Source of the DNA: Girardia tigrina
Lineage: Eukaryota
NCBI GenBank assembly: GCA_001938485.1
Contig: MQRK01246028.1
Location: 1 to 51,806 of the forward strand
Reading direction: 5' to 3'
DNA length: 51,806 bases
The notes under the pieces are model-generated. The model worked only from the letters and a program-made list of their open reading frames with translations. It was not told the DNA's origin and made no database searches. A program made the position numbers and the translations under genes. Positions 9,039 through 48,381 of this stretch are shown here, piece by piece (position 1 is the stretch's first letter; the number at the start of each line of letters is the position of its first letter).

Positions 9039-9740
9039 CCGTAAATTCCGGACTATAAGCCGCACTTAAAAACCTGAAATGAGTCATAATTTAAGAGTCT
9101 ATTGCGGCTTATACGTTAATGTTTTAAGTGCTCAAAAAAATATTTTAAAATAATTTAAATATTTGTTTAAATATTCTTTAAACAAGTCTTAATTCAAAAT
9201 TTTTTACGGTATATTTTTATTTTACGGTTAGTTTACGTTATAATAAATTATTTCAATTTTAGCCATGATCCGATCTTCATATACCTCAAAGTGGAAATTA
9301 AGAGCAATTAAATTAGCTCAATCAAATGGAAATCGTAAAGCTGCATTAGAACTCAATGTCAATGAGTCAATGATCAGAAGATGGAGAAAGCAAGAAGATG
9401 AGTTGAGACAAGTTAAAAAAATCTCGTAAGAGCTTTCGTGGAAACACTCCAAGATGGGCACATCTTGAAGATGATCTTAAGAATTGGGTCTATGAAATGA
9501 GATCAGTTGGTAGAAGCATTGCAACGGTCTCTATACGGCTCAAAGCCAAGACAATAGCTAAAGAATTGTGAATTATGAATTTCTCAGGAGGACAATCTTG
9601 GTGCACCAGATTCATGAAACGAAATAATCTTTCGATTCGGTGCAAAACGACATTAGCCCAACGCGTTCCGGCAGATTTTGAAGAAAAGGCCAGCATATTC
9701 CGTGAGTTTTGTCAAACAAAAATTACAGAGAAGAATATAC
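9039..9740 (+). mobile_element. 5' part of a pogo/Tigger (POGK-like) DNA transposon
   Basis: TA followed by TIR-like CCGTAAATTCCGGACTATAAGCCGCA. From ATG 9265: RSSYTSKWKLRAIKLAQSNGNRKAALELNVNESMIRRWRKQ (Brinker-type HTH), then CENP-B-type HTH ...GGQSWCTRFMKRNNLSIRCKTTLAQ. Frameshift and stop present; truncated before the DDE domain. Confidence 0.88.
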
Positions 9741-12384: not shown

Positions 12385-14466
12385 NNNNNNNNNNNNNNNN
12401 NNNNNNNNNNNNNNNNNNNNNNNNNNNNNNNNNNNNNNNNNNNNNNNNNNNNNNNNNNNNNNNNNNNNNNNNNNNNNNNNNNNNNNNNNNNNNNNNNNNN
12501 NNNNNNNNNNNNNNNNNNNNNNNNNNNNNNNNNNNNNNNNNNNNNNNNNNNNNNNNNNNNNNNNNNNNNNNNNNNNNNNNNNNNNNNNNNNNNNNNNNNN
12601 NNNNNNNNNNNNNNNNNNNNNNNNNNNNNNNNNNNNNNNNNNNNNNNNNNNNNNNNNNNNNNNNNNNNNNNNNNNNNNNNNNNNNNNNNNNNNNNNNNNN
12701 NNNNNNNNNNNNNNNNNNNNNNNNNNNNNNNNNNNNNNNNNNNNNNNNNNNNNNNNNNNNNNNNNNNNNNNNNNNNNNNNNNNNNNNNNNNNNNNNNNNN
12801 NNNNNNNNNNNNNNNNNNNNNNNNNNNNNNNNNNNNNNNNNNNNNNNNNNNNNNNNNNNNNNNNNNNNNNNNNNNNNNNNNNNNNNNNNNNNNNNNNNNN
12901 NNNNNNNNNNNNNNNNNNNNNNNNNNNNNNNNNNNNNNNNNNNNNNNNNNNNNNNNNNNNNNNNNNNNNNNNNNNNNNNNNNNNNNNNNNNNNNNNNNNN
13001 NNNNNNNNNNNNNNNNNNNNNNNNNNNNNNNNNNNNNNNNNNNNNNNNNNNNNNNNNNNNNNNNNNNNNNNNNNNNNNNNNNNNNNNNNNNNNNNNNNNN
13101 NNNNNNNNNNNNNNNNNNNNNNNNNNNNNNNNNNNNNNNNNNNNNNNNNNNNNNNNNNNNNNNNNNNNNNNNNNNNNNNNNNNNNNNNNNNNNNNNNNNN
13201 NNNNNNNNNNNNNNNNNNNNNNNNNNNNNNNNNNNNNNNNNNNNNNNNNNNNNNNNNNNNNNNNNNNNNNNNNNNNNNNNNNNNNNNNNNNNNNNNNNNN
13301 NNNNNNNNNNNNNNNNNNNNNNNNNNNNNNNATGTTTATTGATTGATTATTTGAATCTAATGAAATTAATTTAATGATATTAATTTTAAGTACTAATTAA
13401 TTAAAGTTTGATAATTATGAATTTTAATAATATTTTCAGTAAACGATTATAACGATTTTTTAATATTTTAAAAAATAATGTTTATTTAAAAAATTACGTA
13501 ATGTCTTTTTATCCAATAAAATTATGAGAAATTAAAATTTAATATTAGAATTTCCCATTTATTGTTTTTTAGATTTGAATACATTAACAAAAAACTATAT
13601 CAATTAAAGAAATATGACCTCTGAAAATTGTTGTGAAGAATCTGTTTGTGTTGTCAATAAATGTTTGCATTCAAATTGTGATGTTGTTAATAAATAATAC
13701 GAAGTTATTAAGTACTATTTATTACTATTTATAATTTCATTTAAAAAAAAATTCATAGTAAATAAATTATAATTTTATTTAAACTTCATAATAAATTTAA
13801 ATTTTTATAAATTAATTATTTTATATTATATTTTCTTTAAAAATTTTTTTGTCACGCACCGTGTACCATCGTCATGCACAGTGCGTTAACCACGCCTTAT
13901 TCCTTTTTTCACGTTCGACCACGTGTTTTTTATCTTTTTCATATACAATACGCTATACGCCACGCGTTTAATTTTTCATATTTAAACGCAATATTTTACA
14001 GCATAAGTGATTTCAATTAAAAAACTCTTCAGCTACGAACAAAAAGACTCCAATTTTGCGTTGATTTTATGCGCTACTCGAATTATTTTTTGTCAGTTTG
14101 CGTTGAATTTATTATACGAGATCAGTTACCAATTCGCGTTGATCATTCCGCAGCTTTAAATTATATTGTTTGAGATCCATTGCCCTTGACGAGGAGATTG
14201 ATTTTTCTTATCGGTGATGATATATATCCGTAATTTGATTAAACTGTACTTTTAAATAAAATATTTCAAATTTTATAAAATCAATAATTAATAATACTAT
14301 ATCAAAATAATAATCGTTATATTATTAATCTGATAGACGCTTTGAAACGGAGATTTCGAAGCGCTCTAAATACCGCATAACACAAAGGTAATTATTTTAT
14401 TTATTTGACTTGCATTCTTGTAAAATATTGTTATATATAAATATATTGTTGTATATTAAATATTGT

Positions 14467-24624: not shown

Positions 24625-25577
24625 CTGTAGCGAGAGAACATTGTAAAAGTTACTAGGGTCAAGGCTTTAATCCACCGTTTTTATAAGCTACGTTTTTGTG
24701 AAAAAGATAAGAGTGTCTAAATGTTTTCTTCATAAAATGTTAGCAATGTACAATTATCCTCAAAAAATGTAAAATAAAAAAAGCTTAATTAAAAATTGCT
24801 CATTCATTGTGGATGAACTGAAATGTTTGAAAGGTTTGGTGAGTCTGGAAGATAATTTTGTATTAATTAATCAATTGATAGAAAAAATTAATTAGTTCAT
24901 CTTTTGATAGATAAAATTTATTTAGTCCGAATTTATTGAAATTCCCAATTTTTAATGGTAAATGTGGAATTTTCATTACTATTTATTACTTTTATATTTC
25001 ATTTATATATTTTTTAATATTGGTATTTATTTATTTTTAATATTTTACTTGTCTTTTATTTTGTAGACATTTTATATAAAAGTAATTCGGAATTCAAATA
25101 TTATCATTACTTATTTTATCTTTCAATATCTCCATCTCGAACTTTGAAAGAGAATCTGAGATAATTTTAATTCATTTTTTTCATTCTTTTATTATTTCAC
25201 TTTCTATATATATATATATATAATAGATGTCGCCGTAGGGGACTCGGGGAAACACAATTTCCCCAATATAAAAGAAAAGACGACTTCAAAGTCGCCGCCT
25301 CATCACTGGGGGGACTCGGGGTTGTCCTCACCCAGTGTTGAATGGAGAAAATATAAAAATTCCATTTTATTGTAACTGTCATCAGTTGATGCTGTTGATT
25401 GATCTATGCCATTACTCTGAATTATGATAATAATACAGTTATAATAAAATAATAATAATAATAATATTAATATTAGTAATGATGATGATATTAATAGTAA
25501 TAATATTAATACGAACAATAATATTAAATAATATCAATGATATAAAAATAAAAGATTTGGAAAAAAGTTCTAAATAA

Positions 25578-25772
25578 CCAAAAAAAATTTTATTCAATGA
25601 CATGCTTAAAGTTTTTTTTTATATTTTTTAAATCGGTCCTTCCAAAGTCTGGTATGCCGTGATATTTCTCCCCTGTGCTTTTAATTTTATGTCTTGGCGT
25701 GGTAAGTGTATCTAGTAGTTTTTCACCCTTGCTATTTAGAATTGCGATGGACACTAATCCTAAGGTTTTATC
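25578..25772 (-). pseudogene. Second, internally deleted copy of the exonuclease gene
   Basis: 25578-25650 matches ~26458-26530 (3' end, stop, 3' UTR). 25654-25772 matches ~27274-27393. About 740 nt are missing between the two blocks. Confidence 0.9.
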
Positions 25773-26506
25773 NNNNNNNNNNNNNNNNNNNNNNNNNNNN
25801 NNNNNNNNNNNNNNNNNNNNNNATACAAATCGAAAATGATTATTATTAATTATTTATATTGCATATTGCATTGTTGGATCGTAAATATAATTTTACTGTG
25901 AGAGATTAAAAACTCTTGAATTTTTGTCCTTCTATTTTTTTGGGGGGGGAATACGTTTTTTTAAAGTCCTTCAAAAATACTGTGTGAAAAGAGAATTATG
26001 ATTACAGACAAATTTTACATTTATTATTCAGGTAATATTTACTTAATCATAAATGAAAAAGACATTTAATAATTTTCTTTGATTTAAATAACATCCTTAT
26101 GTAAAATAAGTAAAAAAAAGTGACCTAATCTTCATAAAAATGTCTATGTAGAGCTAGGGCTGAATAGAATAAAGTGTACGGTAACGAAGGTTGAGAGACA
26201 CCAGAGGTAGGGGAGTGACCTGTACGACTAACCTCCTTAAATACCGTTCATTAAAGAAGGTTGAAAAATTTGCTAAAAATAATTTGCGAGAAGCCAAACG
26301 TATTTCTAGAAAAACCTTTCTCAAGATTAGAGATTCCCTTTCAAAGTTTTTTTTTAAAGTAAAGCAAAGGCTTTATATATACCCAACTATTGTATATATT
26401 TATTATTTTTTTTATTATTAATTCCCCTTCAAATGATAAAATCAACACTAAATCAACAAAAAAATTTTTTATTGAATGACATGTTTAAAGTTTTTTTTAT
26501 ATATTT

Positions 26507-27714
26507 TTAAATCGGCCCTTCCAGAGTCAGCCGTTCTCCCTTCTCCGCTCGAAAAATCAATTTCTCCAACTGGTAAATTCTTCCCATGACTTCAATCTGA
26601 TTTTGTGGGATTAAATTTGCAATTTGGATTGATTGATCGGCCACCTCTGGTATTGGGGTTTGAGTCCCGAACTCAAGATATTTCTTCCGATGGGTTTGCG
26701 TTCCGACATTAATAATTGAATCTTCTTTAATTCCTTCCATCAGTGTCTCCATTAAGTCTTCTTCTTCTAACAACTGAACCTCTGGATCTACCAATGGGTC
26801 TAAATTTACTTCTAATATCTCTAATTCTTCTTCCAGATTTCTTTTTCTTCTTTTCTCATCGATCAGCATTCTACAATCTGGCATTGTTTTTCTTTTTTGG
26901 GTTTCCACTTCTATGGATTCCCAAATCTTATGATCAATATAATTTGGTTCAATTGCCTTGTAAATATCTTTGATTGTGGTGGCATCCTCCAAAGCATCAT
27001 GGTGTCCCGGGACTTGAATATTTCTATTAAGAATGTTTTTTGCCAGAATTTGCAATTTGAAAACATGCCTCCTTCTTTGGGTTGCTGACCCATCTCATAC
27101 AATGTTCTGGCCGCTGATAAGTCCCTAATTCCTAGCATTCCCTTCTTATTAATATTTAATACCCTCAGTTCTAGTTGGAGATCGTGTCGGACTAAAATTT
27201 TCCCAAAGCACAGTCGCTGGACTTCTTCGATGACTTCATATTCATCCCTCTGCTTTCGCATCATCGGCTCTGTAATGCCGTGATATTTCTCCCCTGTGCT
27301 TTTAATTTTATGTCTTGGCGTGGTAAGTGTATCTAGTAGTTTTTCACCCTTGCTATTTAGAATTGCGATGGACACTAATCCTATGGTTTTATCTATTTGC
27401 CCTGTTGTGAATTCTGCATCCATAAATATTATATTTCCCTGAATTTCTTTCTTTGATAAGGGTTTTCTTATAAAACTCCTCCTCTGACTAAAATCTTCCC
27501 TTGTCGGTTCGTATGACATATTCTCCAATTTTTCCTTATGAACCCTGATTTTCGGGTTATAATTTGGATTTTTCGGTGTCCTCCTAATTTCAATTGCCAC
27601 TAATGCGGGAGCGTTGTAGGCGCGCAAATAAAAATTTAGTTGCTCTTCTTTTAATTTCCAACTTGTGCGCGGCTCCAACACATTTAGTTCGCTTTCTGTA
27701 ACGCGAGATGCCAT
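26507..27714 (-). CDS. DEDDh 3'-5' exonuclease (REX4/ISG20-like) with acidic coiled-coil/TQT tail; one frameshift near 27060
   Basis: ExoI IFMDAEF; YHGIT; ExoII region ILVRHDLQLELRVL (canonical GHxxxxD altered); IRDLS; ExoIII HDALEDA in the second frame (26507-27055). Intronless, ~400 aa if joined. AATAAA follows the stop (~26468-26473, minus strand). Confidence 0.85.
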
Positions 27715-30189
27715 TACTCGCGTAATGATATATATATATATATATATATATATATCGTTGGAATTAAGAAACCTACTTTCGAAGGCCTTCTACTCTATCT
27801 GTTTTCTTCAAACTAACTCATTCTCGATGATAATAACTTATTATGCAAAAATTTGATCGAATAAAACTTTTTAAGATCCCAAAATGAGAAAAAAACGGAA
27901 AATTCAGAGTTCCCGAACAATATTAATTGCAAGATATTTATTTATAAATTATAAGCAGTTTATATTATTTTTTAATGTTTTTTTAATTAAAATTTTTTAA
28001 ATTTATAAAACTTTGTTCGCAAAGTAGAGTTCTGTCTGCATATAGAATAGATATAAAAAATTTAATTTTTGAATCTGTAATATAATTTATATGTGTACAT
28101 AAATAATATGTTAAATAGAAAGCAATTAAATAATGTAAAAAGTTGATAATAAAAATATAAAATTCTTAACAATAGTGAAAATGAACATTTAAAATGAAAA
28201 TTATTCGAACTGAGTCATGTGACTCTATCTGTGCAGTTCTGATTGACTGCACACATTGTTGGTGAATTTCTTTTCGTCAGATTTGTGAAAACGTTATTGA
28301 GAATCAGAATATTTTTTGATTAATTTTGTGGCAATATTTTGGAGCCATTTTTTTACTTTCGCTATTTTTGTATGAGTTTTTTTGTCTTTGAATTTTGTTT
28401 GGTTTGGACAATTCGAATTTTATTTCGTTAGCATCTGAGAAGAAAAAGAAATTGGTTTCTTTGGTATTCGTTGTAAATTGAGAAGAAAGATTGTGATTGT
28501 GCTCAGAGATTTATCAATAAAAATTTCATTTATCATTATTAAAAAAACAATTCGAATTGTAACGACGAATTGTGAAAAGAAATATTGCTTTACAAACAAT
28601 ATGTATGATGTCTTTATTTGGAAAACATGAAATTTTTAATTACAAAGGAAATTTAAACGAAAAAGAGAAGTCATCACAGATTTTTTCATCTTCTTTGTAA
28701 TAAATTTAAGTTTCTTTATAAAACCGATATGTGTCACTGAGAATATTCGTTTTAACAATACTCTAAATCATTTCGAGGTATGATCTCCTCGATGAATGTA
28801 TTCTTTTATAAATGGACCCAGCACAGTGACATCAATATCGAGATCACATTGCCAAATCCACTGCGTAGCCCTACTATCTCCATCCGGTTCTCGGGGCAAC
28901 TCGGAAATCGGCCGGAACAGTAAAGACTTTGTAAAGAATCGATACAAAAGTTTGGTTAATAAATTTTGATTTAAATTTATTTCTTTTTATGGTATGAAAT
29001 AATTTTCTTTTATTGTTTTGGAGGTCACATGAGTTAGAGATGTATCATTGATGACCGCAGTTCAATTACCATCCGATACTAATAACGATCGGGTAGTCAA
29101 GACGGAGATTATAAAATGAAGATTTGACTTAAAAGTATGTTTAAAATATCATTTACGTAATCATTTACGATCTTTTGACGGCCAACGCAGGGGCTGATAG
29201 TGCCTGTCAAAACGGTTCACTATCTGGTAATCGAAGAAGAGGTAACGCTCCATAAAATATCAAGACAGTATCTGCAAAAATTATTCTTGTAAGATATTTA
29301 AAGCCACCTATCAGTTGACAGATTGCAACAGGTGCTTATAGTGCCTTCCAAGACTGTTGACTATCTGACAGTGAAAACGGGATGGTGATCCATTTAAATA
29401 TCTTTAATATCACTAGGAAATGATAAATAAGTTCGTCCATTCACCAGTCTCCGTTTTGAATTTAACTTTTTGTTTATTCTCTTTTTCAATTATCATTGTC
29501 TTATGTTTCATATTCACGTTTCATTACTAACTACTTATTAATTAAGGATTGAATGATAAATTCATTACTTTGAAGTTTGAAGAAAACATAAAAATATAAG
29601 ATATTCTGAAAGAATCAAAGATTTGAAAATTAATAAATGGATAACCATTTAAAATATCCACAGACAAATGAAAGCGTAGCATGCTTTTGAAATATTTCCA
29701 TTATCATGTATGAATTATGATGAGAAACTCGAGGGCGTCTGATTATGTTTACTGGAAGAATTTAAAAGTAACATAATTGGGTCCTATCTTGTTGGGTTAA
29801 TGAAAAAAGATATTTTTGTCAAATGAATTCAGCTTTTAACGAATATGTATATACCATTTTATAAAAGGGTCAATTTTGAAACTATTAATTTAAAATAAAA
29901 TATTATCCGAATACCAAGGGCCATTAAGAAAAAATAGCATAAACATACATTTGAAAGTGGAAAAACAGTAGCAAATAGCGGAATACAAATATCAAACACA
30001 TTTGAAATTGCCGAAGAAACACAAGGCCATGAAAAAAAATTTACGAAAAATAAAGACTGATAATGGAAAATGAAAATGGAACAATAATTTTATCTGTGTA
30101 TTGTAAATATATGCTTTATATGTGATAATTAAATTGTTTGGTTTCTAAAATTTTATTTAATCTTATCTTTTTCTTTTTATACATACTAA

Positions 30190-30629
30190 GGGCCTACAAC
30201 ATTGTCTCTAAGTTTTTTAAGGCCGTTACATGTAACGGGACGTCAAAAACTAGACAACCTGGGCTCACAAAAATTCCCTTATGATGGGGTCGTAATTGAC
30301 GACCTCATGTTAGCGGAATGGCGAGTTAATGACGCAAATTTCATTTAAATTAAACCACATTAAATAAATAATTTCAGGTCCAAAACCTACTGGATTGCAA
30401 TTCAGAAGAAGTGGATGTCAAATACGGAGCCGCCATGATCCAGCTCCACACTCCAAGAATCATCTGTACCAATGCCTTGGAATTCATTATAAACTCCAAC
30501 TGGGCCGATGTTAAAATTGCGGCAATACATAGAAGAGTAGCCGTGTACAACTTCTTGGATACTCTTTACGAAGAAAAGGGTAATAACAAAGAAACGGCTC
30601 AAAAAATATCATTTGATATTCATTGTTAA
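30190..30629 (+). pseudogene. Geminivirus/CRESS-type Rep, SF3 helicase domain only, with a 44-nt intron (30334-30377)
   Basis: Exon 1: GPTTLSLSFLRPLHVT...LDNL...YDGVVIDDLMLAEWRVND (Walker A lacks GKT; Walker B VIDD). Exon 2, in frame after ...TTTCAG: VQNLLDCNSEEVDVKYGAAMIQLHTPRIICTN (KYG/B' and motif C) and AIHRRV (Arg finger). HUH nuclease half is absent. Confidence 0.8.
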
Positions 30630-30747: not shown

Positions 30748-31242
30748 ATGGCTCCAAAAAGATTTACTCCAAAAATTCCAAAAAATGAGAACACTTCCTC
30801 CACCTTATCCAAGGAATGTCACACCACCATTAACTAAGAAAAAATTATTAAAAACTCCTGAATTTCTACAGTTAGATAATATATCACGAACATCATCAAC
30901 GACAAAAGTAACTATTGGATCATCACCCAATAAAATATCAACTACTTCATCAAGACAGTCACTAGTACCGCATTACATGCAACCAACAATAAGTAGCACG
31001 AATAAGCAAAGAACACCTCTAAACAGATTAAGACAAAACATAAAAAGTCAAGGACAAAATTTACGATGACAACTTCTTATTTACCGAGGAAAAGGATAAA
31101 AATACGGACTACTACACGAATCACCAACCAACCCTAGAGTAATGGAAAACATGAAACAACCAATACCAACAATTAATATGGACAATATTTCATTAAGAAC
31201 AATTACGCCACAAACAACACCACAAGCAAACAATACCTCATG
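30748..31242 (+). pseudogene. Basic S/T/P-rich low-complexity ORF (frameshifted), function unknown
   Basis: MAPKRFTPKIPK from 30748 shifts into ORF 30785-31069 (PPPYPR, KKKLLK, PHYMQPTISS). Coding-like A/C-rich sequence continues to ~31240. Confidence 0.4.
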
Positions 31243-31283
31243 AATCGCCTAATGTACCTGAGCCTAGGCATCATCAATCACAA

Positions 31284-31310
31284 GTACCATGGTTACCGTA
31301 ACCATGGTAC
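31284..31310. repeat. Perfect 13-bp inverted repeat with a 1-nt spacer
   Basis: GTACCATGGTTAC-C-GTAACCATGGTAC. Confidence 0.95.
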
Positions 31311-31463
31311 ATAACCTTAGAACAAATGATCCGTAATGATCACCGCTGGGAGACATGTCATTTTGAAATAACATCTCGCGACGATCATGACGTAATAGTT
31401 TATTCGGAGAATAAATCTATTCCGTCTAGAACCAATATCATTGTCAGACGAATACCGAACTAA
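31302..31463 (+). pseudogene. DWNN (RBBP6/Mpe1 ubiquitin-like) domain fragment ending in a stop
   Basis: YITLEQMIRNDHRWETCHFEITSRDDHDVIVYSENKSIPSRTNIIVRRIPN* parallels the DWNN C-terminal half (..DLQITN....EY.DD..LIPKNSSVIVRRIP). The N-terminus is lost at the palindrome. Confidence 0.6.
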
Positions 31464-31822
31464 TCTAAATCTACCTGTGAAATACCGTTAGAGAGCTTTC
31501 AAAGGCTGACTGGCATTCAAACGAAAAAAATAAAAGAAGGGAGAAAAAATACTTCGGGCTGTTTTCAGACTATTGATGAACGTTTAACAAGAATAAATGA
31601 AAAATAATTCGGAAGTTCTGTCAGAAAAACTGAATTTAAAACAGTAATTTTCGAAACAGAATGACCCTATTCCACCTGCAACAAAAGTCTCTGTCACTGA
31701 TGCTTGGCCAGAAAAAAAATAATTTTGGTAGTATGTAAAAACTCCTATTGTACTTAAAACGTGCATAGACATTATACATAACATCTGCATAATCATCTAA
31801 TGTACCTAAGCCTAGGCATTAG

Positions 31823-31888
31823 CCATCATGTCAACGTACTGCACCCATCATGGCAACGAATTGCACTCATCATATCAACGTATTGTAT
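31823..31888 (+). repeat. Three tandem 22-bp repeats
   Basis: CCATCATGTCAACGTACTGCAC / CCATCATGGCAACGAATTGCAC / TCATCATATCAACGTATTGTAT. Confidence 0.9.
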
Positions 31889-32028
31889 AGTTAACATTTT
31901 ATAGTATATATCAATATTATATATAACAAAAGTTGTTTTTTACAAGTTTATGAATAAAGATATGTATAACATGACTTTTCAAATACAAGATTTTGAATGA
32001 AGATATAACAATATATTTGAAACACAAC

Positions 32029-32466
32029 TTACATAGTTGTAAACAAAATATAGTCAAAAACACGTGTAACAAAATCCTTATAGTTCAAATCTCTCAAACC
32101 GGTGATTACAATTTTCCCAGAACCAAAAACATTTACACATATTGGATTGAAACAAGTTAATCTCAACGAAGGAAACATTTCAGGTTCATAATGATTCGGA
32201 GTAGTCTTTTTCAAAGCATTGAATTTTATGGGCTCATCATAATCACACGTCACTGCAATAGATTGTATACTGAAATTGGTGATATTGAATGGTAAAGTGG
32301 GTGGATCAATTGGTTGTTTAAAACCCATTATTCGACATTTTCCATTGCGGAAGAATATGATGGTATAATCTGGAAAGTGTAAAACACATTTCCACAGTTT
32401 AGTGTCAAAATGGAGGTCTTTCAGACAATTTTGAGTAAATCCTTTGTAATTGATATTACGCAGCAT
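32029..32466 (-). CDS. Minimal, divergent TATA-binding-protein-like protein (145 aa, intronless, intact)
   Basis: Two TBP half-repeats: TIIFFRNGKCRIMG and IQSIAVTCD..PIKF...YEPEMFPSL...VNVFGSGKIVITG (compare TBP YEPELFPGL, LIFVSGKVVLTG). Confidence 0.88.
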   Translation of the reverse strand: MLRNINYKGFTQNCLKDLHFDTKLWKCVLHFPDYTIIFFRNGKCRIMGFKQPIDPPTLPFNITNFSIQSIAVTCDYDEPIKFNALKKTTPNHYEPEMFPSLRLTCFNPICVNVFGSGKIVITGLRDLNYKDFVTRVFDYILFTTM

Positions 32467-32504
32467 TTGTTAAAAATGAATGTCACTGTATCCATCATAA
32501 TTCA

Positions 32505-32530
32505 AATTCCCGCCTTGTGTCTATTTATAC
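32505..32530 (-). promoter_or_regulatory. Putative promoter of the TBP-like gene
   Basis: Minus-strand GTATAAATAG (32521-32530) ~55 nt upstream of the ATG, followed by an E2F-like GGCGGGAA. Confidence 0.45.
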
Positions 32531-32729
32531 AATTGATACATTAAAACAAATTAATAACAAGCCTTAGTTTTGCTATTTTAAAAGTAATAAGTAATATTAT
32601 TGTTATAGTTTTTTTTCTTTTAATGCATCAAATAAAGTAAATACAATAAACGTTATGAGATATCGCAACATTCAGACATTTTGTCATTATTTCAAAATCC
32701 GTTTGACAAATTAAGTTGCTCCTGCTGAA

Positions 32730-34072
32730 ATGAAGTGGAAGTTTAAAACCTTTAATGGTGAGTATGGAAGAATCGATATTGTGAAATTACTATTATCAAG
32801 ACATTGCTGTGTGGAACCTCTTGCAACTTTTCATGAAACACCGTTACATTCTGCATGTAAATATGGACACAAAAGTATTGTTGACTTATTATTGTCATTC
32901 AACTGCAATCCTGATGCCGAAGACATATATAAAAGACAACAAATACATCATGCTTGCCGTAATGGTCATCTGAGTATTGTGAAATCGTTGATCTCGAAAG
33001 ATTGTGACATAAATGGTGAAGATGAACGTGGTAATACAGCAATTTATCTAGCTTGCAGCAGCGGTAATTTAAGTCTTGTGGAATTATTAATTTCGAAAAA
33101 TTGCAACATTCCTGTTGTTGCGGCAGCATCGCAGTGGAAGCTTATGTCATATCTTGACCTCCTGTGGGTCACCAAGGGGAGAGGAACGTTTTCGATCACG
33201 TCATCGTCATTTTTATTATCATTTATATTTTGGCTAAATTTCCTATTTTAATTATTTTTATTTTCGATAATATTTTTAATTTTATTATTTTTATTTTTAT
33301 TATTTTTATTAAAAATAAATATAAATAAATATAATAATTACATAAGGACATAGATTCATTAATCGTCCGAAGGCACCGACCGATTTGGGAATATCTGAAC
33401 ACTTGATCTTTCTTTCGCAATCATTAGAACCACTTGAGGAGCCACATATGAAATAATCTGGTTGAAATAATTTCCCAAGAATCGAATTCAGATCGTAATC
33501 GAGAGTGGTACAATTCAACTCAACCATGACGCTGATCGGCGCACACTCTCCATGAACTCCCGAAGTAACGTAAACGTCGTATCTCTGCAATCGCGAATCA
33601 CTGTCGCTTTCGTGAACACCAGTGGTCGGTTTGACTGGTGATTATTTCCCAAGACTTCGTTCCCATACTGTTTCTACAACCTTGAAAGATTCGCATTAAT
33701 TCATACCATTTATCATGAATTTCTTCACAAAATTTGATATACAATCTCCGATCGATAATTTTTACATGATTATTTTCAAACGTCTTTACAAAATAATCCG
33801 CATTTAAGTCATAGTCGAATAGCATGAATAATTCTTTGGTAATAATCAAATCAATGTCTATTTTCATCAAGATTTTTTATTATATAACAATCACAATTTC
33901 GTCAAATTTCTCCGCAGTTACCGTGAGNNNNNNNNNNNNNNNNNNNNNNNNNNNNNNNNNNNNNNNNNNNNNNNNNNNNNNNNNNNNNNNNNNNNNNNNN
34001 NNNNNNNNNNNNNNNNNNNNNNNNNNNNNNNNNNNNNNNNNNNNNNNNNNNNNNNNNNNNNNNNNNNNNNNN

Positions 34073-34108
<36 letters not shown>

Positions 34109-34977
34109 AATCATTAAACAAAATAAACATCTTTTTGACTATAAAAATATTTAAGAGATTTTTTTCTTTTTAACTTAATTTACTTTAATTTACGAAAACA
34201 TAAAAATTTACTTATTTTTTTAGAATTCCAAATTTAACGAAATTCTAAATTTAACGAAACCGAACACCTGTCAAAAATGAAAAGGATGAATCGATCATGC
34301 ACTTTGCTTGTTGTGGGGGTAATCTGAGTATTGTAGAATTATTAGTATCAATGAAATGTGACATTCATGTCAAAGATAAATTTGGAATGTGGCCAATTCA
34401 CTATGCATCTCAAACCGGCAATCTGAGTATTGTAAAATTATTGATTTCAATGGATTGTGACATTCATGTTCAAGATAGAGAAAGAAATCAGGTCACACAT
34501 TACGCGTGTTGATCGGATAATGTTGAACTTGTTGAATTTTTGCATTCGAAAGGCGCAGAATTAGAAGCTGAAAATTCGTACAAACAGAGACCGCTGCATG
34601 AAGCATGTAACTGGGGCTCTAAAAATTTAGTTGAATATTTATTATCTAAAGGATACGATATCGAAGTGATGGATAATGAAAATATGAGATGAATACATTA
34701 CGCATGTGAAGACGATTCAACTACTGATATTGCAGAATTATTGATATCTCACAATTGTAACCTTGAATGTAAGATTGAGGACGGAAACAGACCGATACAC
34801 ATTGCTTGTAGAAATAATGATACAAATCTTTTAAAGTTACTTTTAACAACCAATTGTCAAATAAATACGAAAAATTATGATGGACATAGGCCACTTGATT
34901 TATTAACTTACCGTGATAGAGATGATCTTGTCGAATTACAAATGCAAAACATTATTATGCAAATCACAAACCTTTAA
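32730..34977 (+). pseudogene. Intronless ankyrin-repeat gene (~10 repeats) split by an insertion, with two in-frame TGA codons
   Basis: Repeated TPLHSAC/IHHAC/PIHYAS/PLHEAC...G.L.IV.LL..... units. Removing 33116-34271 restores CNIPVKNEKDESIMHFAC. TGA at 34510 and 34690. Confidence 0.92.
33116..34266. mobile_element. TG...CA-bounded insertion (solo-LTR- or Ginger-like) with 5-bp target-site duplication
   Basis: Ends TGTTGCGG...CCGAACA. CCTGT is duplicated at 33111-33115 and 34267-34271. Contains a gap, a TA tract and two short unassigned minus-strand ORFs. Confidence 0.85.
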
Positions 34978-35344
34978 TGAACTTAACCAAGTAACTGAAG
35001 AAAAGGAGATTGATGATGAGACAGTTAATGGACCTAACCAATTAACTGAAGAGATAAATGCTGATCAACCTAATCTAGTCGAACCAGTCAGACCAGTAGG
35101 GCGGCCTAGACTAGTCAGGCTTCCTAGGTTAGTTGGACAACCAATAGTAGCCAAGGCTAGCCAGACAACCAAGGATATCCAGGCCTCAATTGATGAAGAC
35201 TTTGTTAGTCAGGATAACCAAGTTAGTTATTTTCAACCAAAACAAAGAGATGCTGCACAAACATTTTCCTCACCATGGGTTTCTACATCAACAACATATA
35301 GAGGATATCAGATTAACTTGTTGAAATATCGAAAAATCAATTAA
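34913..35344 (+). CDS. Low-complexity ORF overlapping the ankyrin 3' end; AT-hook-like RPVGRPR
   Basis: Open 143 codons with a NQ(V/L)TEE duplication and a GRPR core. May be a frameshifted ankyrin tail. Confidence 0.3.
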   Translation: MIEMILSNYKCKTLLCKSQTFNELNQVTEEKEIDDETVNGPNQLTEEINADQPNLVEPVRPVGRPRLVRLPRLVGQPIVAKASQTTKDIQASIDEDFVSQDNQVSYFQPKQRDAAQTFSSPWVSTSTTYRGYQINLLKYRKIN

Positions 35345-35659
35345 ATTGAGGGATCCGGTATATGTTAGAAAGAGCAAATTTAGCTATTGTTGAGGTTTTT
35401 AAAAAAAATTTTTTATTGAAGCTTAAAGCTCCTATTTCGGTCATCCCAGGGGATGAGGAACTATTTCCCCTCATTCCCTGAGATGGCTCCGAATTTTGGG
35501 AGCCTATAATTTTACCTGTAAATTATAATAAAAAAAATAATAAATAAAAAAATATATATTTATAAAATTAAATATATAAAAAAAATAACTACAAAAAAAT
35601 CTAACCTTTCAAAATTTGTAAATAATGAAAATTGTGGGAAATATTTCCCTTTTTGTTGC

Positions 35660-35905
35660 TTCGGCCTATCAGCCGACCAATGGAAATTGGCATTAGGCCA
35701 TTGGTCGGTAGGCTCATTAAAAAATCGAATGCCTTAATGACATAATTTGATTTATTTACGGCTTTAATGGCCTAGTGGAAAATTCACGGCCTTAATGGCC
35801 TTTGGTGATTTACGGCCTTAATGGCCTTTATTCCTTTTTAAAAAAAGAATTCTTTTTAATTAAAATAGTTATTTTATATATATGTAGCTCTAGTATAAAT
35901 AGAGC
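35660..35905 (+). promoter_or_regulatory. Hairpin + repeated GGCCTTAATGGCC motifs + TATA-containing mini-hairpin
   Basis: CCGACCAATGG/CCATTGGTCGG inverted repeat (~35673-35707). Three ACGGC(C/T)TTAATGGCCT copies (35758-35827). GCTCTA-GTATAAA-TAGAGC (35887-35905). Confidence 0.6.
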
Positions 35906-36049
35906 AATATTTTTATATATAAAAAAAGAAGGAAAATTAAAAAAGTAAAAATTTTGAAAATCAAAAAAAATAAATTCCTGTATAGAATCTGAGAATCAAT
36001 TTAATATATTCTAAGCTGTATAGCATCTTATAATCTCGCCTCCAATCAT

Positions 36050-36520
36050 TCAAAGTTGTACAAACCTTTGCTCAAGATTGTAATTGTATATTGAAATAAA
36101 CGATTATCGAAGAAACTTTGTTATTTATTGGAGTCAAAGAGTTCATCGAGTTTAGACGTTGGGTCAGATAATTGAGCGCCGAACACCAAACAAATCCTTC
36201 TGATTTTTGTGTTCAAAATCAAATTTAAATTAAATACCCAACACTATCATGTAAAGGACATTAGTGATCGCAATAATGATCTTTTGAATATTGCCCTACA
36301 AGTTGGAACAAGACCAGATGGGAAGCTGAGTGAACATAGAGAACAATATTTTCGATCAGATGATGGATTAAAATTCAGAGATTTTATGGGTCATGAAAAA
36401 CCAACAATGGAATTGTCTAATTATACTATGGCATTTATCAAAATATGCATACAAGGAAGAAAAGAAAGAAATGGTGAAAATTATCCAATATGGAAATTGT
36501 CAGAAATTCGTTGTATTTAA
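36050..36520 (+). pseudogene. Degenerate small gene; C-terminus reminiscent of viral OB-fold ssDNA-binding proteins
   Basis: ORF 36209-36520 ends AFIKICIQGRKERNGENYPIWKLSEIRCI. A protein-like upstream frame (LLFIGVKEFIEFRRWVR) is interrupted by stops/frameshift. AATAAA at 36539. Confidence 0.3.
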
Positions 36521-39500
36521 TTGTTGTATTGTTGTGTTAATAAATCTTGTAATAATTTAGTTCATAATTAACCCGAATTGGCCAGAGGAAAAACTTGATG
36601 CGATACATCGATATTTAATTTCAAGGATAAGACATGATAAAAAACGATATTAATGCAAGTAAAAAATTAGTACCTGCAAAACAGTACCAATTTAATGTAG
36701 ATTACTAGTTCTTATTATTTATTTGTTTAAATGTTATAATTTATATTACATAAAGTCAAGGGCGGATCCAGGACACAAACTGTTAATGAACCGAGTTTTG
36801 ACTACAAAATGTGTTAAAATAAATAAAATGGTATGACATTAGGTAACATGTTATATTAAATAAAAACAATCAAACTAACGGAAGGATAAAAATGAGTAGA
36901 CTCAATCACAATAACATGAATATCTAAAGGTCATTGGGAAGATGCTCCGAACAGAACGAAAATAAAATAAATTACTTTGTCCAGGGGGGTTTAGAAATGG
37001 ATTGTTTTACTTTTGGATCATACTTTTTGGATTTAATTTTTGATATATGAATTCCGACAATTAAGTCTAAGTTGAAAAATTAGTTAAGGAGACGATTATT
37101 CGAAAGCCGATGTTTCTTGATATTAAAAATAATGTTTTGTAAAAAAATTAGATTCTTGATTAGTTTTGAGTTTCATTGGAAATTTGATCGGGAACTTGAA
37201 CTTCTTAAGATCACAATGAAATTTACATTCGTTATCACAAAGAAAATATTCGTGGTAAATAATTATTCTTCTTTTTTAATTTACTTTTATTGATTTATAA
37301 TTCTTTAATTATAATTTCTGATTATTATAATTATATTTTATACTTTCTGATGCGAGGGTGGGAAAGATTTCCTTGATAATTCTTTCTTTTACTTCATTAT
37401 TTCTTTCTTTTCCTTTCACCCTTTAGATCATTAACATACACCAAAAAGAAATAAATGAATAAATATATAAAAAAATTCACATCTACCAGTAAAAATAAAA
37501 AAAATAAAAATTTACTTTTACATATATATATATATATAGTATTATATTAAATATTAGAAGTAAACATTGTAAACTGAAGCCTATCGATCTTAAAATTTAG
37601 TTAAAAGAAATTTTTGAAAATAACAATCAAATAAGTGAATTAAATAGATTTTAAAACATATATTATATTTCGTTATATATCATCAAAATGGTGATTTCCA
37701 TACACTTGCTATTTGATCGTGTCATCAATTTGTTCTCAATTCATTTTAAATTTCTATATTGTAATTGTTTTACATTTAAATAAATATTTTAATCAAAAAG
37801 AGGTCGTTAATATTTTATTTTTTCTTAGCAACGTTTCACATACATAAAAAGTAATCCCACAATTTTTTTGTGATTTTATAATGTTATTATTCCAATTGAT
37901 ATTCCATACGATATACTAGAAAAGTTTGATCAAAATGGGATAATGGATTTAAAGTTTGATAAATGCTGTTAAAATAAAGTTTCACTGAAAGATTGATACT
38001 AATTAGATCAAGAATCGGGATTAAAATATTTGATCGACTATTGCTGCTATTAAGCCATCCGACCAGATGGAAAGCAACAAACTATTGTTAAATAATACAA
38101 ATAATTTCTATATTGTAGGTTTTTTAAATAAAATTAGTATAAAAGTTTTATTTTTTATAATTTTTGTCAAGTTAAGTTGTACTTATCAAATTTAAAAAAC
38201 TGTTTAGACATGTCAGATTAATTATCTTTTGTTACCAAGAACACCTATAAAACTATCATTAAAACTTCATCCAACAGTAATCACCCGAGGATTGCGAATT
38301 TCCAGGTCAAGACAAGACTAAAAAAATCAGGGTACCGATTTTCTCACAAGAAAATATCTCAATTGACAGTATCCAAGGATCAAAATCAATTAAGTTTCTT
38401 TTTTAATTAATTAATATTATAAATTATAATTATAAACTTCATATTTGACGATAAACTTTCATGGCCGGTAAAAAAGATAATTACTATTTCTGTGGTAAAT
38501 CAAGCGAATTAAACGGAAACCAAGAAAATTGAACAAGTCACGAGACAGCACGGATTGATAAAAAAACTATTATTTCCGACCGAAATAAGACAATAATGAC
38601 TGGTGTACAACCGACGACTTTTATAGAATCAACACGACTTGTTAATGGTAATGACTAATGAGAGAATTTTGTTTCTTCGATGTTCCATAAATTAAAATTA
38701 TTCTCTTAATAAATATTTGTTTGTTTAATACTTTCTTCTTTAATTAATTAATATTATAAATTATAATTATAAACTTTTATTTTTCGTTCTGAGATTCTGT
38801 GAGTTTTTTCGCTCGCCTCAATGCCGGCACAATGAATAGGCCAGAGACCGAGTTGAAGAAAGTTTTATTATTAATTTAAAGAAACAAGATTTTTAATTTT
38901 TTTCAAAAATAAAACGATGTTACTTAAAGATGTATCATAATAGAAAATTATCAATCCCGATTAAATACTAAAATTCAATGTTCATCATCAATAAAGTTTA
39001 TAAAATTATGATAATTATACTCAAAAATGAAATATTTTTAGATATTTTCAAACTTTCAAGGTATGTTCAAAAACAAGACAATATTTCATTTCATAAAATT
39101 TTTTTCAAAAATAATTAAAGAATTGAAAATTTTTCTCTTTATTTGATAATACCTTTGTCATGATTTGCTTTTAAAAACAAATGATTGATTTTAATGTCCA
39201 GGGTTATTTTACTCATTCCTATAATCTCTTGTGGGAAAAAACTACTTTCCAGCGGTTTTAGATGTGGATACATAGCTTCGACGACCGGGCTAACTGAACA
39301 GGGCACCGAGCTATTTAGTCAAAAATTTTTGAACAGGTACAATTTTTTTGGGATTTCCTAGTGATCCTAAAGTTTGAGAACATAGAAAGACATAAAAATA
39401 TTCCACTTAATCGAGCGGTTATTTAACCACATTGGCCGGTCCGATTAGGCAACTTGTGAAGGCCGAGTTATGAAACGAAAATTGATAATGTAAATCGATT

Positions 39501-39599: not shown

Positions 39600-40506
39600 A
39601 AAACCAGTAGAATTCCCCCCAGACAAAATTTCAGTTGATCTTTGTGGTTGAGGTGCTGGCACCCGGGCTGAGCAATGGTGGCCAGCACCTCATTATTGTG
39701 CGGGAAGTTGCTGAGCGAAGAAATCGAACTTTCGGTTGAGTGGGTGCCATGAACCGGTCGATAGACACCGATCGGCGCGTCGATACGTTTAAATTTTCAC
39801 CCCGTCGGTGAAGGCTTCTCGACTCGTTTCTCCGGCTCTGTTGCGGTCGATGCCGCTCGGAATGGCGGTTAGTGAGACCGGCTCGTCGGTAAATGACCCG
39901 AATGCGAAGCCAATGGGATCGCGTAGATCTCCGAAATGACGCATGATGCTTTGCGTTATTATTTTTAATTATTTCAAATTAGGAAACAGACATGGTCGAG
40001 AAGAAATGTATTTATTTAATTAAATTCAAAATTGTGTGTGTGGTGCTCCGGTCAAACGAGCGAAATAAAAAAATGGATTTTTTTGTGTTTAAATTAACTT
40101 ATGTAATAATAGTCATGTGCACAAAATTTGAATTCGATTTGCGAATAATACAAAATAAATAGTTATTTCTTGTCCCACATATTATCTTATTCTTTTAATT
40201 CGAATTTTAAAAAATGAAAGCGATCCGCATCGCCGTACCACACACCCAGCCGCCTCACACATCTCGGCGGCGCACGGCGGAGCTCCGCGACCGCATCAAT
40301 ACAACATCTGGGCCGCGGATTGATTAGCCGACAAGACAATCTGCCGCTTCAAGCGGATCCGGCGGTCACTGGGCCAGTAACGTGGTACGGGAAGCTGCGG
40401 CCGACCGAATGGGGGTTCCTTACTCGACAAGGCATCCTGCTGGGAGAAACTCGGTCCGATCGGTTACCGGCGTCCACCGAACTGGCCGATCAATCCCATC
40501 GTAACA
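39600..40506 (-). mobile_element. GC-rich LTR-like segment abutting and truncating the hAT transposase (left boundary uncertain)
   Basis: Ends ...CGTAACA (TGTTACG on the minus strand) exactly where Buster-type coding sequence begins. Two GC-rich hairpin-dense blocks. Confidence 0.55.
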
Positions 40507-42470
40507 AATATTTTGTGTAACAAAATCTTAAGCAATGATGCTATGAAACCATCCAAACTGGAGGATCATCTGAGAAGATGCCACCCTGATAAAACATGTA
40601 AAGATTTATTATACTTTACAAATCTGAAAGAAAAATTTCAGAAGAGAAGTACGATGGACAACATGCTCGTTTCAACTTCAAGAGACAATGACGGTTTGCT
40701 AGCATCTTATAATATCTCACTACTCATAGCAAAATCAGGAAAACCTCATACTATCGGGGAACAGCTGATTCTGCCAGCTGTTAAAGAGGTTTTAAAAACT
40801 GTTCTACACCAGTCTGCGCATGATATACTCAAAAGAATTCCTTTGAGCAACAACACAGTTCAAAGACGTATTGATGAAATGAGGATGATGTTGAAGATTT
40901 CTTATTTACTTACCTACAAACGAATCATTTCTCAATTCAGTTAGACGAGTCAACTTTGCCTGGTAATGAAGCACTATTATTGACATATGTTCGTTTTATT
41001 ATTAACCAAGAAATTCAAGAAGAACTTCTTTTTGCGAGGACTTTGACGACAGACACTAAAGGCGAAACAATATTCAATGTTCTGAAAGATTATTTGAGGA
41101 TAAAATCGATCCCTTTATCAAATATAATATCGGCAGCAGTAGATGGAGCACCAGCCATGTTTGGACGCTATCGCGGTTTTATAAGTTATTTAAAACAAAA
41201 TGTACCTGGGGTGTTTGCAATTCACTGCATCATTCATCGACAACATTTAGTAGCTAAAAATCTGAATGCCAGATTATATGAATCTCTTCAATTCGTCATA
41301 AACGTAGTGAACAAAATACGTGGCAACGCATTAAATTGTAGATTATTTGAGCAATTGTGTCCTGAAAATGACGAGGAATTTAAGAGATTACTCTTCCACA
41401 CTGAAGTGCGCTGGCTTTCTAAAGGATTATGCTTGACAAGATTTTATTCACTTTTTGAAACTGTTTTACAATTTTTGGATACTAAAGATCCCCATTTGAA
41501 AGAGAACTTAATAAGATGTAAAACTGACATTGCTTATTTAACATATTTGTTTACCAAATTTAATGAATTTAACTTGCAGTTACAAGGTGACAATCTGAAT
41601 TTAATAAGAGCAAAGTCTATCATTGCAGCGTTTCTTGGCAGGCTTAAACTAATGGACAGCGTGCATGTGGGCAATTTCCCAAGTTATCGTTGATAAACGT
41701 CCAGGATAATGATGTTTTAGTCTACGTTTAACATTTAAATACCCTTCACACAGACTTTACAACCAGGTTTGAAGATGTTTTGACTATGGAAATATCACCG
41801 TGGATTATCAACCCTTATTGTGACTTTGAAGAAAGGAAGGTCATATTGCAAGAACTAATCTCAATTAGTACTAATGAAGAACTGAAGGTTGAGTTCAAAA
41901 AGGGGTATCAACAATTCTGGTTACAGAAAAGTATAACTGCTGCTTATCATACGTTATGGACTGTGTTAGAAAGTTTTTGATAGCTTTTCCATCTTCATAC
42001 CAAGTGGAAAGAGGTTTTAGCGTGGTTACCAATATGATTACGAAAAATAGAAATAAATTAGAAATCGTTGAACGTGGAGATTTAAGACTCCACCTGACTA
42101 ATTTGAAGCCACGAATTGAAAAATTGGCATCGGAGCATCAGGTTCATCCCTCTCATTAACAGCATTATATGTATATTAATTTTATTTAAGTGACTATTTT
42201 TTTACTTTGTATCGTTCCAAATTCAAATATGTAGTTTAATTCTGTGTTGTCAATAAAATATGAATAAAACTTGTATGTTTTTCATTTTTTCTTATTGCTT
42301 AATATAAATAAATAAATTGATCAATAAACCATAAAGATGGACAGTAATGTATCAGCTGTCAAAAATATATTTGAAGTTATTAAATTTACAAAAGATTTAA
42401 CTGTAGGGGTCTACGGAAAATAAAAATATCGGTAAGTGGTCTACGGGACAAAATAGTTTGGGAAACACCG
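40507..42470 (+). mobile_element. hAT Buster/Charlie-type transposon (ZBED8/SCAND3-like transposase), 5'-truncated, frameshifted, 3' TIR present
   Basis: LCNKILSNDAMKPSKLEDHL, KPHTIGEQLILPA, PLSNNTVQRRI, QLDEST, DGAPAM, HCIIHRQHL, HTEVRWLSKG, FPSSYQVERGFS, RGDLRL. Terminal GTTTGGGAAACACCG at 42456-42470. Confidence 0.95.
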
Positions 42471-45519: not shown

Positions 45520-48381
45520 AATGGATAACGAGACTCCTGATGAGAGTCAAAAAGCCATAATATAGAGAAAGGCAAAAATGTTATCGAGAATGCCAAAAGG
45601 AGAACTTAGAAGAAATTAGACAAGCTAAAAGGCAAAAACAAACGGATTATGAGGCTACGTCGTGACGATGAAAACCCAGAGCAACGTCAAATTCGACTCA
45701 ATGCCCTCGCTCTTGCAAATCGTCTTTTATTTTATTTGCGTCTACTATTGCTGCATGTTAAAGGACCAAAACGTTTTGAAGATATAAGAACACACGAAGG
45801 GATAGTTTATCCATCATTCAAAGCTGCTGCCCTTGCTCATAGATTTCTTAAGTCTGATCAAGAGTACATTCGATGCTTGGAGGAAACCGTTAAATTTCAA
45901 ATTCCACGACAACTTCGCGGCATATTTGCGTGTATTTTATGCTTGTCAACCTGCACAACCTATTGAGCTTCGAGAAAAATTCCAAAAAGATTTTGCGTTC
46001 TATTTCTTACGTTCAATGGATATTCATAATGCTCATAATTATGTATTGCACGCTGTTGAGAATACTTTTAGGTGCATTGAATGAGTTGTCAATATTTTGG
46101 CCTTCCAACACCTCAAGGCAATCCTCCAATTAAAGACTCTCTAAGAAGCATTCATCGCCCAAAGAAATATTGAGAAATTCGACGATAAGCAGCAGGAGGC
46201 TTTTAATGAAATAAGAGATGCTCTAGATTCAATAGTTTCCTATTGTTTTTATCTTGATGGCACATGGGGATCGGGAAAATATTTCTATATACAACGATTT
46301 TATCGTTCGTTAGAGGTCGTGATTAAAAGGCACTTCCATTTGCAACTACAAGGATTGCAGTAACTCTTTTAAAAGAAGGAAGAACGGTTCAAAGTGGATT
46401 CAAGCTTCCTGTACCTCTTGATCAATCAGTCACTTGAATACGACTCGATTCCAAAGAAACTGAACATTTGCGATATGCTGCATTAATTTCGATAGATTTG
46501 ATTACCATGCTCCCGAAGGATGGATTTCGCTGCAGGTTGCTGAAATAAATAATGAAGAATGAAATTCTTTTTGGTGACAAAGTATTTGTTGTTGGTGGTG
46601 ATTTTTGTCAAACACTTCCTGTTGTGTTTCATGACAATCATGCCGAAATTATTGAGCGTTGCTTCAAACCAAGCCCAATATGGCCCAATTTCAAACACCT
46701 GTAACGAACAACAAATACGAGATGCAAAATCAAGAACATAGCGAAATACTGCTTAAAGTAGGCGAAGGAATACATATAAAATTTCCATCTCTTCGCGATT
46801 CTGATCTCTTGCAAATAGCACCGCAGATGATCGAGAATTGTGATCTTATCGATGGAATTTTTGGAGAAAACCTATCAACAATAAGCACCGAAGAATTATC
46901 AAAGAGTAGTTGTCATAGGTAAAAATGCACAAGCGCTTGAAATCAACAGAGAAAAAATTCAGAAATTGCGTGATCGAATTAAAATATACTATAGAGCAGA
47001 TTCAGTTATCTCAGATGATCCTTCAGATGCTCTCAATCTGGGCGATATGTTTGCAATTTGAATCCTAAAAAGGGACTTTGTAATGGTACTCGCATGATAG
47101 TCGAAAACTTTTCACGAAGCACCATTACTGCTCGCATTATCGCTGAATGTAATCGAATAGATTTAATGATTATACTAAGAATTATACTTGCCCCAAGTGA
47201 CAAAAATTTGGTATTCATCCTAAGACGACGACGATTCCCTGTACTCCCAGCATTCGCAATAACAATTAATAAATGTCAAGGGCAAACATATGAAAAAGTT
47301 GGAGTTGATATCGAACAGCCAGTATTCGGACATGGTCAATTATATGTTGTATATTCACGTGCTCGCAATGCTAACAAAATTAAAGTCAAAGTTACACAAT
47401 TACCAAATCACGGAACGTTGATGAAGGATGATCGTGAATTCACACGTAATGCTGTTTTCAATGAGATTTTTCAAATGTAATTCACTGAGCATGGCTGAGC
47501 AATAAAAAAGAATTATGAATGACATTTGAATTTATGAAGAGACATTTGATTTTTGGACATTTGTTTCATTTGTACATAATAGTTTTTCTTTTTCACATAG
47601 GTATCATGCCTAATTCCTTAGTATTAAGTTTAGAAATATGTCTTAAATACTAATTCATTAGTAATGCCCAATATTTTTTATTCTTTCTACTAGATATAAA
47701 TTGACTGTAAAATTTTCGAAAAATTCGAAAACATTAAGTCAGGTTTTTTTAAATTAAAATTCGATACTCAAAGGGTTAAACCATAGAGAACTAATTAAAT
47801 AACTGTTTCGCGAAATTGAAAATTTTAGGAGAATATGTTGAAGTTCATGTTTCAAGTAAGAAATGCTTTGAATTTTATTAATTTGCCTCATCAGATTCTT
47901 CATTTTAAATCAATACATAGCCTTATTACCACATTGGAAAGAAGGGAAGTCACTGCGCATCATTTGATATTGATCATTTAAGCAACTATCGATACATCGG
48001 TAATTCCAATAAAATTCCTTCATTTTTGATTTGAAGCTAATTTAAATCTTGATTAGATGTCTTTAAATATGATGTGGACTTTTTATTATCTGCCAGTGAT
48101 CAAGTTGAATTATGACTTCAAGTATTATGGGATGAAGAATTCGAAACAGATCATATCAACATTTCATTAGAATCTTAATTGGGAATGTTTGATGAAGAAC
48201 AAAATGATGAAGAGCACTTAGAAAAAAATCAAAATCAGGATGATATTGGAAATTATCGTGAATAAATTTGAAGTAATCTTTCTCAAAAATAAGGCATATA
48301 AAATAGCAGTGCATATTTTTACTGTAAAAGTAAAAAATTTACTTTTCACGGGCCATCGTGACGGGCAAAATTTTACTAATA
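45520..48381 (+). mobile_element. Decayed, internally deleted Helitron (Rep-helicase remnant with PIF1 motifs; probable 3' end)
   Basis: FYLRLLLLHVKGPKRFEDIRT, PRQLRGIFACIL, FYLDGTWGSGK, FGDKVFVVGGDFCQTLPV, GLCNGTRMIV, FAITINKCQGQT, FGHGQLYV.YSR. Small hairpin CACG-GGCCAT-CGTG then ...ACTAAT at ~48347-48381, resembling a Helitron 3' terminus. Confidence 0.92.

Follow-up and report, generated by a model that had tools for sequence, protein, structure and literature searches.

A gene for a shortened TATA-binding protein (TBP) lies in a 51,806-nt stretch of the Girardia tigrina genome (contig MQRK01246028.1, positions 1 to 51,806, hereafter called the window), and the question arises as to whose initiation factor it encodes, and for which promoters. 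From sequence alone, it had been read as a TBP mimic encoded by an element.

The ORF is intron-free and its 145-aa product, hereafter mini-TBP, corresponds to the TBP core alone. Pfam assigns TBP (PF00352) to residues 64 to 125, which cover repeat 2 only (E 2.3e-13; 50.2 bits for a cut-off of 22.9), and hhalign matches the protein to TBP with a probability score of 99.4. An AF2 model built from a 51-sequence alignment (pLDDT 95) aligns with yeast TBP (7o4i_O) over 145/145 residues (Z 13.7, rmsd 2.6); its Z scores against yeast 7o4i_O, human 5fur_A and Sulfolobus 1mp9_B are 13.3 to 13.7, and the next unrelated fold scores 7.1. In this model mini-TBP has the two-repeat saddle fold of TBP over its whole length. 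The comparisons with TBP that the sequence-only reading had proposed (HHpred, AlphaFold) thus agree with its description of an intronless TBP-like ORF with both half-repeats, no N-terminal extension and a retained YEPEMFP stirrup in a complete repeat 2. Repeat 1 had been described as short and devoid of its stirrup; the stirrup is indeed missing, but the loss is larger. Four strands are present in the model, whereas helices H1 and H2 are absent together with S2/stirrup, no helix of four residues or more is found before residue 82, and the hhalign alignment has a gap at H2. A search of the Atlas with the ORF returned generic TBP clusters alone, and in BFVD, TBP-like proteins of giant and other large DNA viruses match it, with a best E of 2.5e-7 among the matches listed.

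Which surfaces of TBP are kept? Three of the four intercalating Phe have an equivalent (F39, F98 and F114), the fourth being missing, and the second central Asn of TBP is replaced by a near-invariant S69. In the 51 aligned sequences, residues E94, P95, E96, F98 and P99 of the acidic repeat-2 stirrup are at least 90% conserved. The positions matching yeast I194, V203 and L205 are R102, C110 and N112, each also at least 90% conserved; N112 is invariant, and R102 and C110 are near-invariant across the family. N6 and R45, on the DNA face of repeat 1, are likewise conserved, in a region where the register relative to TBP is less sure and varies by method. In PMC1636458, I194, V203 and L205 are described as determinants of TATA specificity in yeast TBP, the C-terminal repeat recognizes the TATA box's 5' half, and selections with a TBP variant disfavour C at positions 6 to 8. 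The conserved residues and the model support a protein with its TFIIB-side stirrup kept, its DNA face apparently changed to a polar one and its repeat-1 surfaces apparently lost. At that level, this agrees with the earlier suggestion of a protein that may retain TFIIB binding with altered DNA or TFIIA contacts.

The genome searched (1.43 Gb, AT-rich) is a fragmented assembly of 255,254 contigs. It contains at least 150 copies of mini-TBP (152 matches from the 150 scored of 1561 candidates), in a unit of about 8 kb with the order TIR, PolB, ORF X, divergent TBP, TIR. The ends of the element read AGTAGGGG...CCCCTACT, with AG...CT termini, long TIRs and 6-bp TSDs. Nine contigs are bounded by TSDs matching at five or six of 6 positions. 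Six of them are of the replication type (6/6 in C249606, C232877, C196640, C250128 and C241883, 5/6 in C248235) and three of a capsid type described below (6/6 in C222231 and C203575, 5/6 in C223974). TBP is present in four of the six replication-type contigs, C196640 and C250128 being PolB pieces without it. The PolB is of the protein-primed type, with DNA_pol_B_2 and Endonuclease_7 domains in a sister copy. For ORF X, the model (pLDDT 92) reaches VIA Z scores of 8.0 to 8.4 with three phage SSBs, near the tool's caution level, and Foldseek gave no match in the PDB at E 0.001; its identification as an SSB therefore stays a prediction. Helitron, LTR and Penelope origins, considered on the basis of a hairpin and tandem pieces, were dropped when TIRs, TSDs and PolB were found. 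That mini-TBP is a gene of a Polinton-type element is, to our mind, virtually certain, and the earlier claim of an element-encoded TBP is borne out. The outer 30 bp or so of C250128, C241883, C196640 and C223974 differ from copy to copy, but a given copy has the same sequence at either end; one of these end-to-end matches includes changed terminal bases. Such matching ends would fit end-to-end correction during protein-primed replication.

The copies fall into two subfamilies, A, to which the window copy belongs, and B, whose TBP is 144 aa long and about 65 to 69% identical to that of A. In one B copy (L300:5743-7494, contig C212755), the 3' end of the TBP gene is partly duplicated in tandem. 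Selection was analyzed on full-length, in-frame copies picked by protein score, with duplicates dropped: 36 of subfamily A and 18 of subfamily B. Pairwise dN/dS, over pairs that are non-independent, is 0.28 within A, 0.52 within B and 0.25 between A and B. Variants common to at least four A copies are 28 silent versus 10 amino-acid-changing, whereas those confined to one copy comprise 53 silent and 156 changing ones plus 6 stops, and lie near the site ratio of 3.7. These sequence comparisons support purifying selection on the family, and the pattern would be that of an element gene selected during its spread and neutral once inserted.

The copy in the window is a remnant (Table 1). Four segments of it align with the element (31227-31318, 31733-32757, 34968-35386 and 36244-36561), and they are separated by foreign inserts, three in all. 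ORF X, the neighbor of the TBP gene, is broken by two of the inserts, and PolB is absent from the window, with none after position 36561. A 173-aa ankyrin ORF (32730-33251) is a chance fusion of insert sequence to ORF X codons.

Table 1. Features of the mini-TBP element copy in the window
Feature	Position	Strand	Remark
Inner 90 bp (approximately) of TIR	31227..31318		Perfect hairpin at 31286-31312; outer TIR and terminus absent from window
Third foreign insert, 414 bp	31319..31732		Interrupts the element match
Subterminal block 3' of TBP gene	31733..32028		Common to the PolB end, partly to the capsid element
Mini-TBP gene, subfamily A	32029..32466	-	Open frame of 145 aa; in 9 codons, private changes of the amino acid
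Spacer between divergent TBP and SSB genes	32467..32654		Contains TATAAATAG and the E2F-like word
E2F-like word TTCCCGCC	32507-32514		Present in window letters, variable among copies
TATAAATAG	32521-32529	-	Present in window letters, copy-specific
ORF X 5' remnant (predicted T7 gp2.5-like SSB)	32655..32757	+	Holds a stop, ends at the insertion
Foreign ankyrin-repeat insert, itself interrupted	32758..34967	+	Direct repeat of 12 bp (32746-32757, 34968-34979)
ORF X middle piece	34968..35386	+	Matches other element copies
Second foreign insert, within ORF X, 857 bp	35387..36243		Gap when aligned to other copies
ORF X 3' piece, OB-fold part	36244..36561	+	Last element-matching bases

The TBP gene of the window had been singled out as the only clearly undamaged gene of its surroundings, which is misleading. 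Of the 36 A copies compared, a sample biased by the choice of best hits, 26 are free of stops, and the window copy has accumulated nine private amino-acid-changing codons for two private silent ones. This number of changing codons is the joint second highest of the 36 copies (median 5), and some of the changes, at positions 24 and 49, affect family-conserved motifs or their immediate surroundings. A special preservation of this copy is not supported. The window copy is decaying, and is itself most likely inert. Its two proposed promoter words fare no better: the letters are present in the spacer, but TATAAATAG is found in one of 36 A copies (that of the window) and in 0/18 B copies, and GGCGGGAA in 14/36 A copies and 0/18 B copies. 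These counts rule out both words as conserved signals, and a role as functional promoter is unsupported.

The mini-TBP family is wide. With a limit of E 1e-10, HMMER finds 71 proteins in a set of 50%-identity representatives, short forms of 100 to 230 aa making up the majority, and a metagenome scan gave 120 relatives, of which 80 were kept. In IMG/VR, where the queries were the ORF, two capsid proteins and alignments of the family and of the ATPase, one partial TBP hit was obtained and no other relative. In three metagenomic relatives (L138, L140 and L192), TBP and PolB share a contig with ATPase, rve integrase and capsid genes, which is evidence at the level of the contig. Among the relatives, Pfam recognizes rve and Pox_A32 domains, the DJR capsid scores 0.98, and an adenain-like protease has an E of 5e-5. 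On L140, a gene for a ubiquitin-conjugating enzyme lies at positions 225-722 of this TBP-bearing, adintovirus-like contig.

Homologs of the integrase, ATPase, capsid and protease genes of the relatives sit in TIR-bounded elements of the host genome, with 714 and 782 candidates for capsid protein and ATPase, respectively. These genes form a unit of about 9 kb, in the order TIR, ATPase, integrase, penton, hexon, protease, DEDD-like gene, TIR; the names penton and DEDD stand for resemblances, and Pfam assigned no family. The TIRs of the replication and capsid elements are 79 to 90% identical. PolB of the mini-TBP family was found together with its capsid genes in 0/64 regions and 0/9 TSD-bounded copies. 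Four separate gene-to-end junctions recur. A TIR follows TBP within 1.5 kb at 16/24 loci (6 too-short loci dropped) and precedes the ATPase gene at 19/23 (7 too-short loci dropped). PolB is followed by the subterminal block or TIR at 21 of 30 loci, by the SSB gene at three, by TBP at one and by capsid genes at 0/30; the other five have nothing there or are too short. The DEDD-like gene, last of the capsid module, is followed by the subterminal block or TIR at 8/8. Composites of the pieces also occur (L382, C245630). One long element had been suggested by the penton gene of C245630, and was rejected: this penton comes from a distinct Polinton family, whose PolB and TIRs are not those of the mini-TBP element.

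Which promoters could such a protein serve? We scored ATAAAC 15 to 62 nt before gene starts, taken as first ATGs, in metagenomic loci L131-L199, several of which share samples (69 of 80; ten weak hits and L130 were left out). It precedes 61/93 starts of virion genes, with most occurrences between -31 and -45, versus 3.5% of random windows. By gene, the counts are 21/22 for ATPase, 7/8 for PLA2, 10/13 for penton, 6/9 for hexon and 6/9 for core-like genes, and lower for DEDD-like (7/14), integrase (4/12) and protease genes (0/6). Replication-side starts have it in 2/59 (TBP), 3/18 (SSB) and 1/3 (PolB) cases, and unassigned ORFs in 26/117. In the Girardia tigrina genome, the box is found at 25/29 ATPase loci and 2/5 hexon loci; one capsid piece has 15 occurrences in sense and 0 in antisense orientation, and one replication piece has 2 and 1, respectively. 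Nine regions of other Polinton families without a mini-TBP hit have it before 0/44 ORF starts, a control that consists of two or three families of one genome, with regions that may be incomplete and some starts that belong to non-Polinton genes. The link between mini-TBP and ATAAAC is a correlation inside one clade. The box contains a forkhead-like core, and a host factor could read it.

Mini-TBP is probably a late-gene promoter factor of a Polinton, which would read ATAAAC and recruit host TFIIB and RNA polymerase II. The replication piece would be expressed early by the host machinery, and mini-TBP would then act in trans, by binding the ATAAAC boxes of the capsid piece. Its re-specified DNA face would read (T/C)ATAAAC, and host TFIIB and Pol II would be called in. 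TFIIA, TAF1, Mot1 and Brf1 dock on the TBP surfaces that are lost from repeat 1 of mini-TBP, and loss of the helices may free it from host TBP regulators docking there. The capsid piece, in turn, would supply integrase, and perhaps particles, to both pieces. In the four runs examined for expression, the contigs were of uncertain type and covered many copies.

Several other scenarios are considered. A host origin, as retrocopy of host TBP or domesticated host TRF gene, might be suspected for an intronless gene, all the more as the host has other intronless TBP paralogs: it has ordinary TBPs of its own, and its two-repeat TBP genes (L211-L221) are of five kinds or more, three with introns and two intronless and multi-copy. 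In a tree of 53 rows, however, a 100/100 branch parts 25 mini-TBPs from 5 host TBPs (3 of them single exons) and 23 other TBPs; the tree informs on this separation alone. Mini-TBPs group with viral homologs, at least 150 copies lie inside TIR elements, and the window copy decays. The two outcomes that the sequence-only reading had named as fatal to it, a recent neutral retrocopy and a conserved single-copy TRF gene, are both at odds with these data; a host origin is scarcely credible, and is refuted for the family. Of the two initial alternatives, private initiation factor and decoy, the former is the best reading and the latter a weaker rival. A decoy would bind host TFIIB or block host TATA promoters, ATAAAC being read by host TBP or another factor; the stirrup on the TFIIB side has persisted where other surfaces have disappeared, and the tie between protein and motif is a correlation, as a decoy would allow. 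We nevertheless consider it unlikely: the DNA face shows invariant new polar residues rather than drift, and the motif, whose sequence and distance from the start are TATA-like, is avoided before the TBP gene and absent from the control Polintons. Mini-TBP could also bind TIR repeats or the origin, rather than promoters, as a replication or packaging helper acting with the SSB, whose gene it adjoins in both subfamilies and many relatives, on a piece devoted to replication. Conservation of the TFIIB stirrup and a promoter-positioned motif that tracks with virion genes make this very improbable.

The way in which the two gene sets are held together is a separate matter. We propose, tentatively, a bipartite (possibly multipartite) Polinton virus, with replication and morphogenesis segments that share termini and insert separately, and in which the smallest working TBP core would license the other segment via a private ATAAAC code; both pieces were seen as integrated, decayed copies only. 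Alternatively, mini-TBP may be the late factor of an undivided Polinton, and the two pieces deletion derivatives multiplied by a full-length helper. The relatives carry both gene sets on one genome, many copies show further deletions and inversions, and short contigs hide long elements. Moreover, in short contigs of subfamily B, TBP and SSB lie directly before the ATPase gene, heading the capsid genes (L301 and L277; SSB only in L346), and so an undivided helper may exist. Against this, PolB and capsid genes never occur together in the regions and TSD-bounded copies counted above, the four junctions are fixed and recurrent, and the shared variants of TBP-A are mostly silent, so that the replication piece appears selected for its protein while spreading. 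An undivided element is possible, if rather doubtful.

How does mini-TBP compare with known systems? It resembles cellular TBP and TRF by its saddle fold over the full length, its complete repeat 2, its YEPExFP stirrup and its three intercalating Phe equivalents, and differs by being some 35 aa shorter, by polar DNA-facing residues, by a separate tree group and by its mobility. The TBP-like proteins of giant and large DNA viruses are also viral versions of the fold; they are longer, and at most 18% identical among the matches listed. Many of these viruses encode their own RNA polymerase. Herpesvirus late promoters have a TATT box, and the counterpart of this nonstandard TATA-like late box would here be ATAAAC before virion genes, as known from sequence alone. 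KSHV ORF24, of the beta/gamma-herpesviruses, is a TBP mimic for the late genes of a virus without its own RNA polymerase (PMC7498053), a role that mini-TBP would share. ORF24 is large, makes direct contact with Pol II and is one of six proteins in a complex, whereas mini-TBP is a bare core of 145 aa with the TFIIB stirrup, and lacks a Pol II-binding N-terminal domain of the herpesvirus type.

The element itself is akin to Polinton/Maverick elements and Beta-type adintoviruses as described in PMC8502044, with long TIRs, AG...CT ends, a 6-bp TSD, and genes for a pPolB with endonuclease-VII-like domain, an rve integrase, an A32-like ATPase, a DJR capsid and an adenain-like protease. It differs from usual Polintons in having its gene sets on two separately inserted elements with common TIRs. 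In the text covered of that paper, TBP figures among the labels explained under Fig. 5, with no family, structure or promoter given for it, and the one supplementary file has no match to TBP or TATA. A PolB system distributed over segments with similar terminal inverted repeats is found in bidnaviruses and Drosophila Vesanto virus (10.1101/2020.10.16.342956); these bidna-like viruses are described as ssDNA, whereas the element here has integrase, TSDs, DJR capsid, protease and TBP. In the literature covered, part of the field including recent Polinton papers and taken as text without figures, neither such a promoter system nor a split Polinton was found. Both are apparently undescribed for this family, and the figures of PMC8502044 may bear on their novelty.

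A TBP of 145 aa and its matching word make testable, with one small protein and a short DNA, how a Polinton that has no RNA polymerase may activate its particle genes. Mini-TBP, devoid of both helices in repeat 1, is also a natural test of the TBP surfaces needed for initiation, and, together with ATAAAC, it could form an orthogonal TBP-promoter pair. If true, a split double-jelly-roll Polinton would extend genome segmentation to the Polinton group.

Other elements were encountered during the analysis. At least two other Polinton families (C232772, C246857, C215858 and C212335; L065-L080) are present, with 1684 penton-like candidates, many of them open frames; L065-L080 have no mini-TBP hit and no ATAAAC. 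The TIR family of the mini-TBP element also bounds cassettes in which a putative CRESS-like Rep, so named for its motifs, is accompanied by a small ORF and by an SF3 helicase of parvovirus/papillomavirus-like type (L227:1-4774 on C218521; C230445, C231829, C233049, C243127, C176067 and C198715). These cassettes form tandem arrays of diverged copies, and adjoin TBP-B, SSB and a PLA2-like gene, or a related PolB. In the window, a degraded piece resembling CRESS-like Rep helicases lies at 30190-30629 (+), some 600 bp past the TIR remnant. An intronless, frameshifted ORF resembling RNase T/DEDD exonucleases is found at 26507-27789 (-), with a partial second copy at 25576-25853. Mobile-element pieces occupy positions 403-867, 9575-13346, 40381-41693 and 45649-47480, and are hAT-like (DUF4371), Gypsy-like and Helitron-like.
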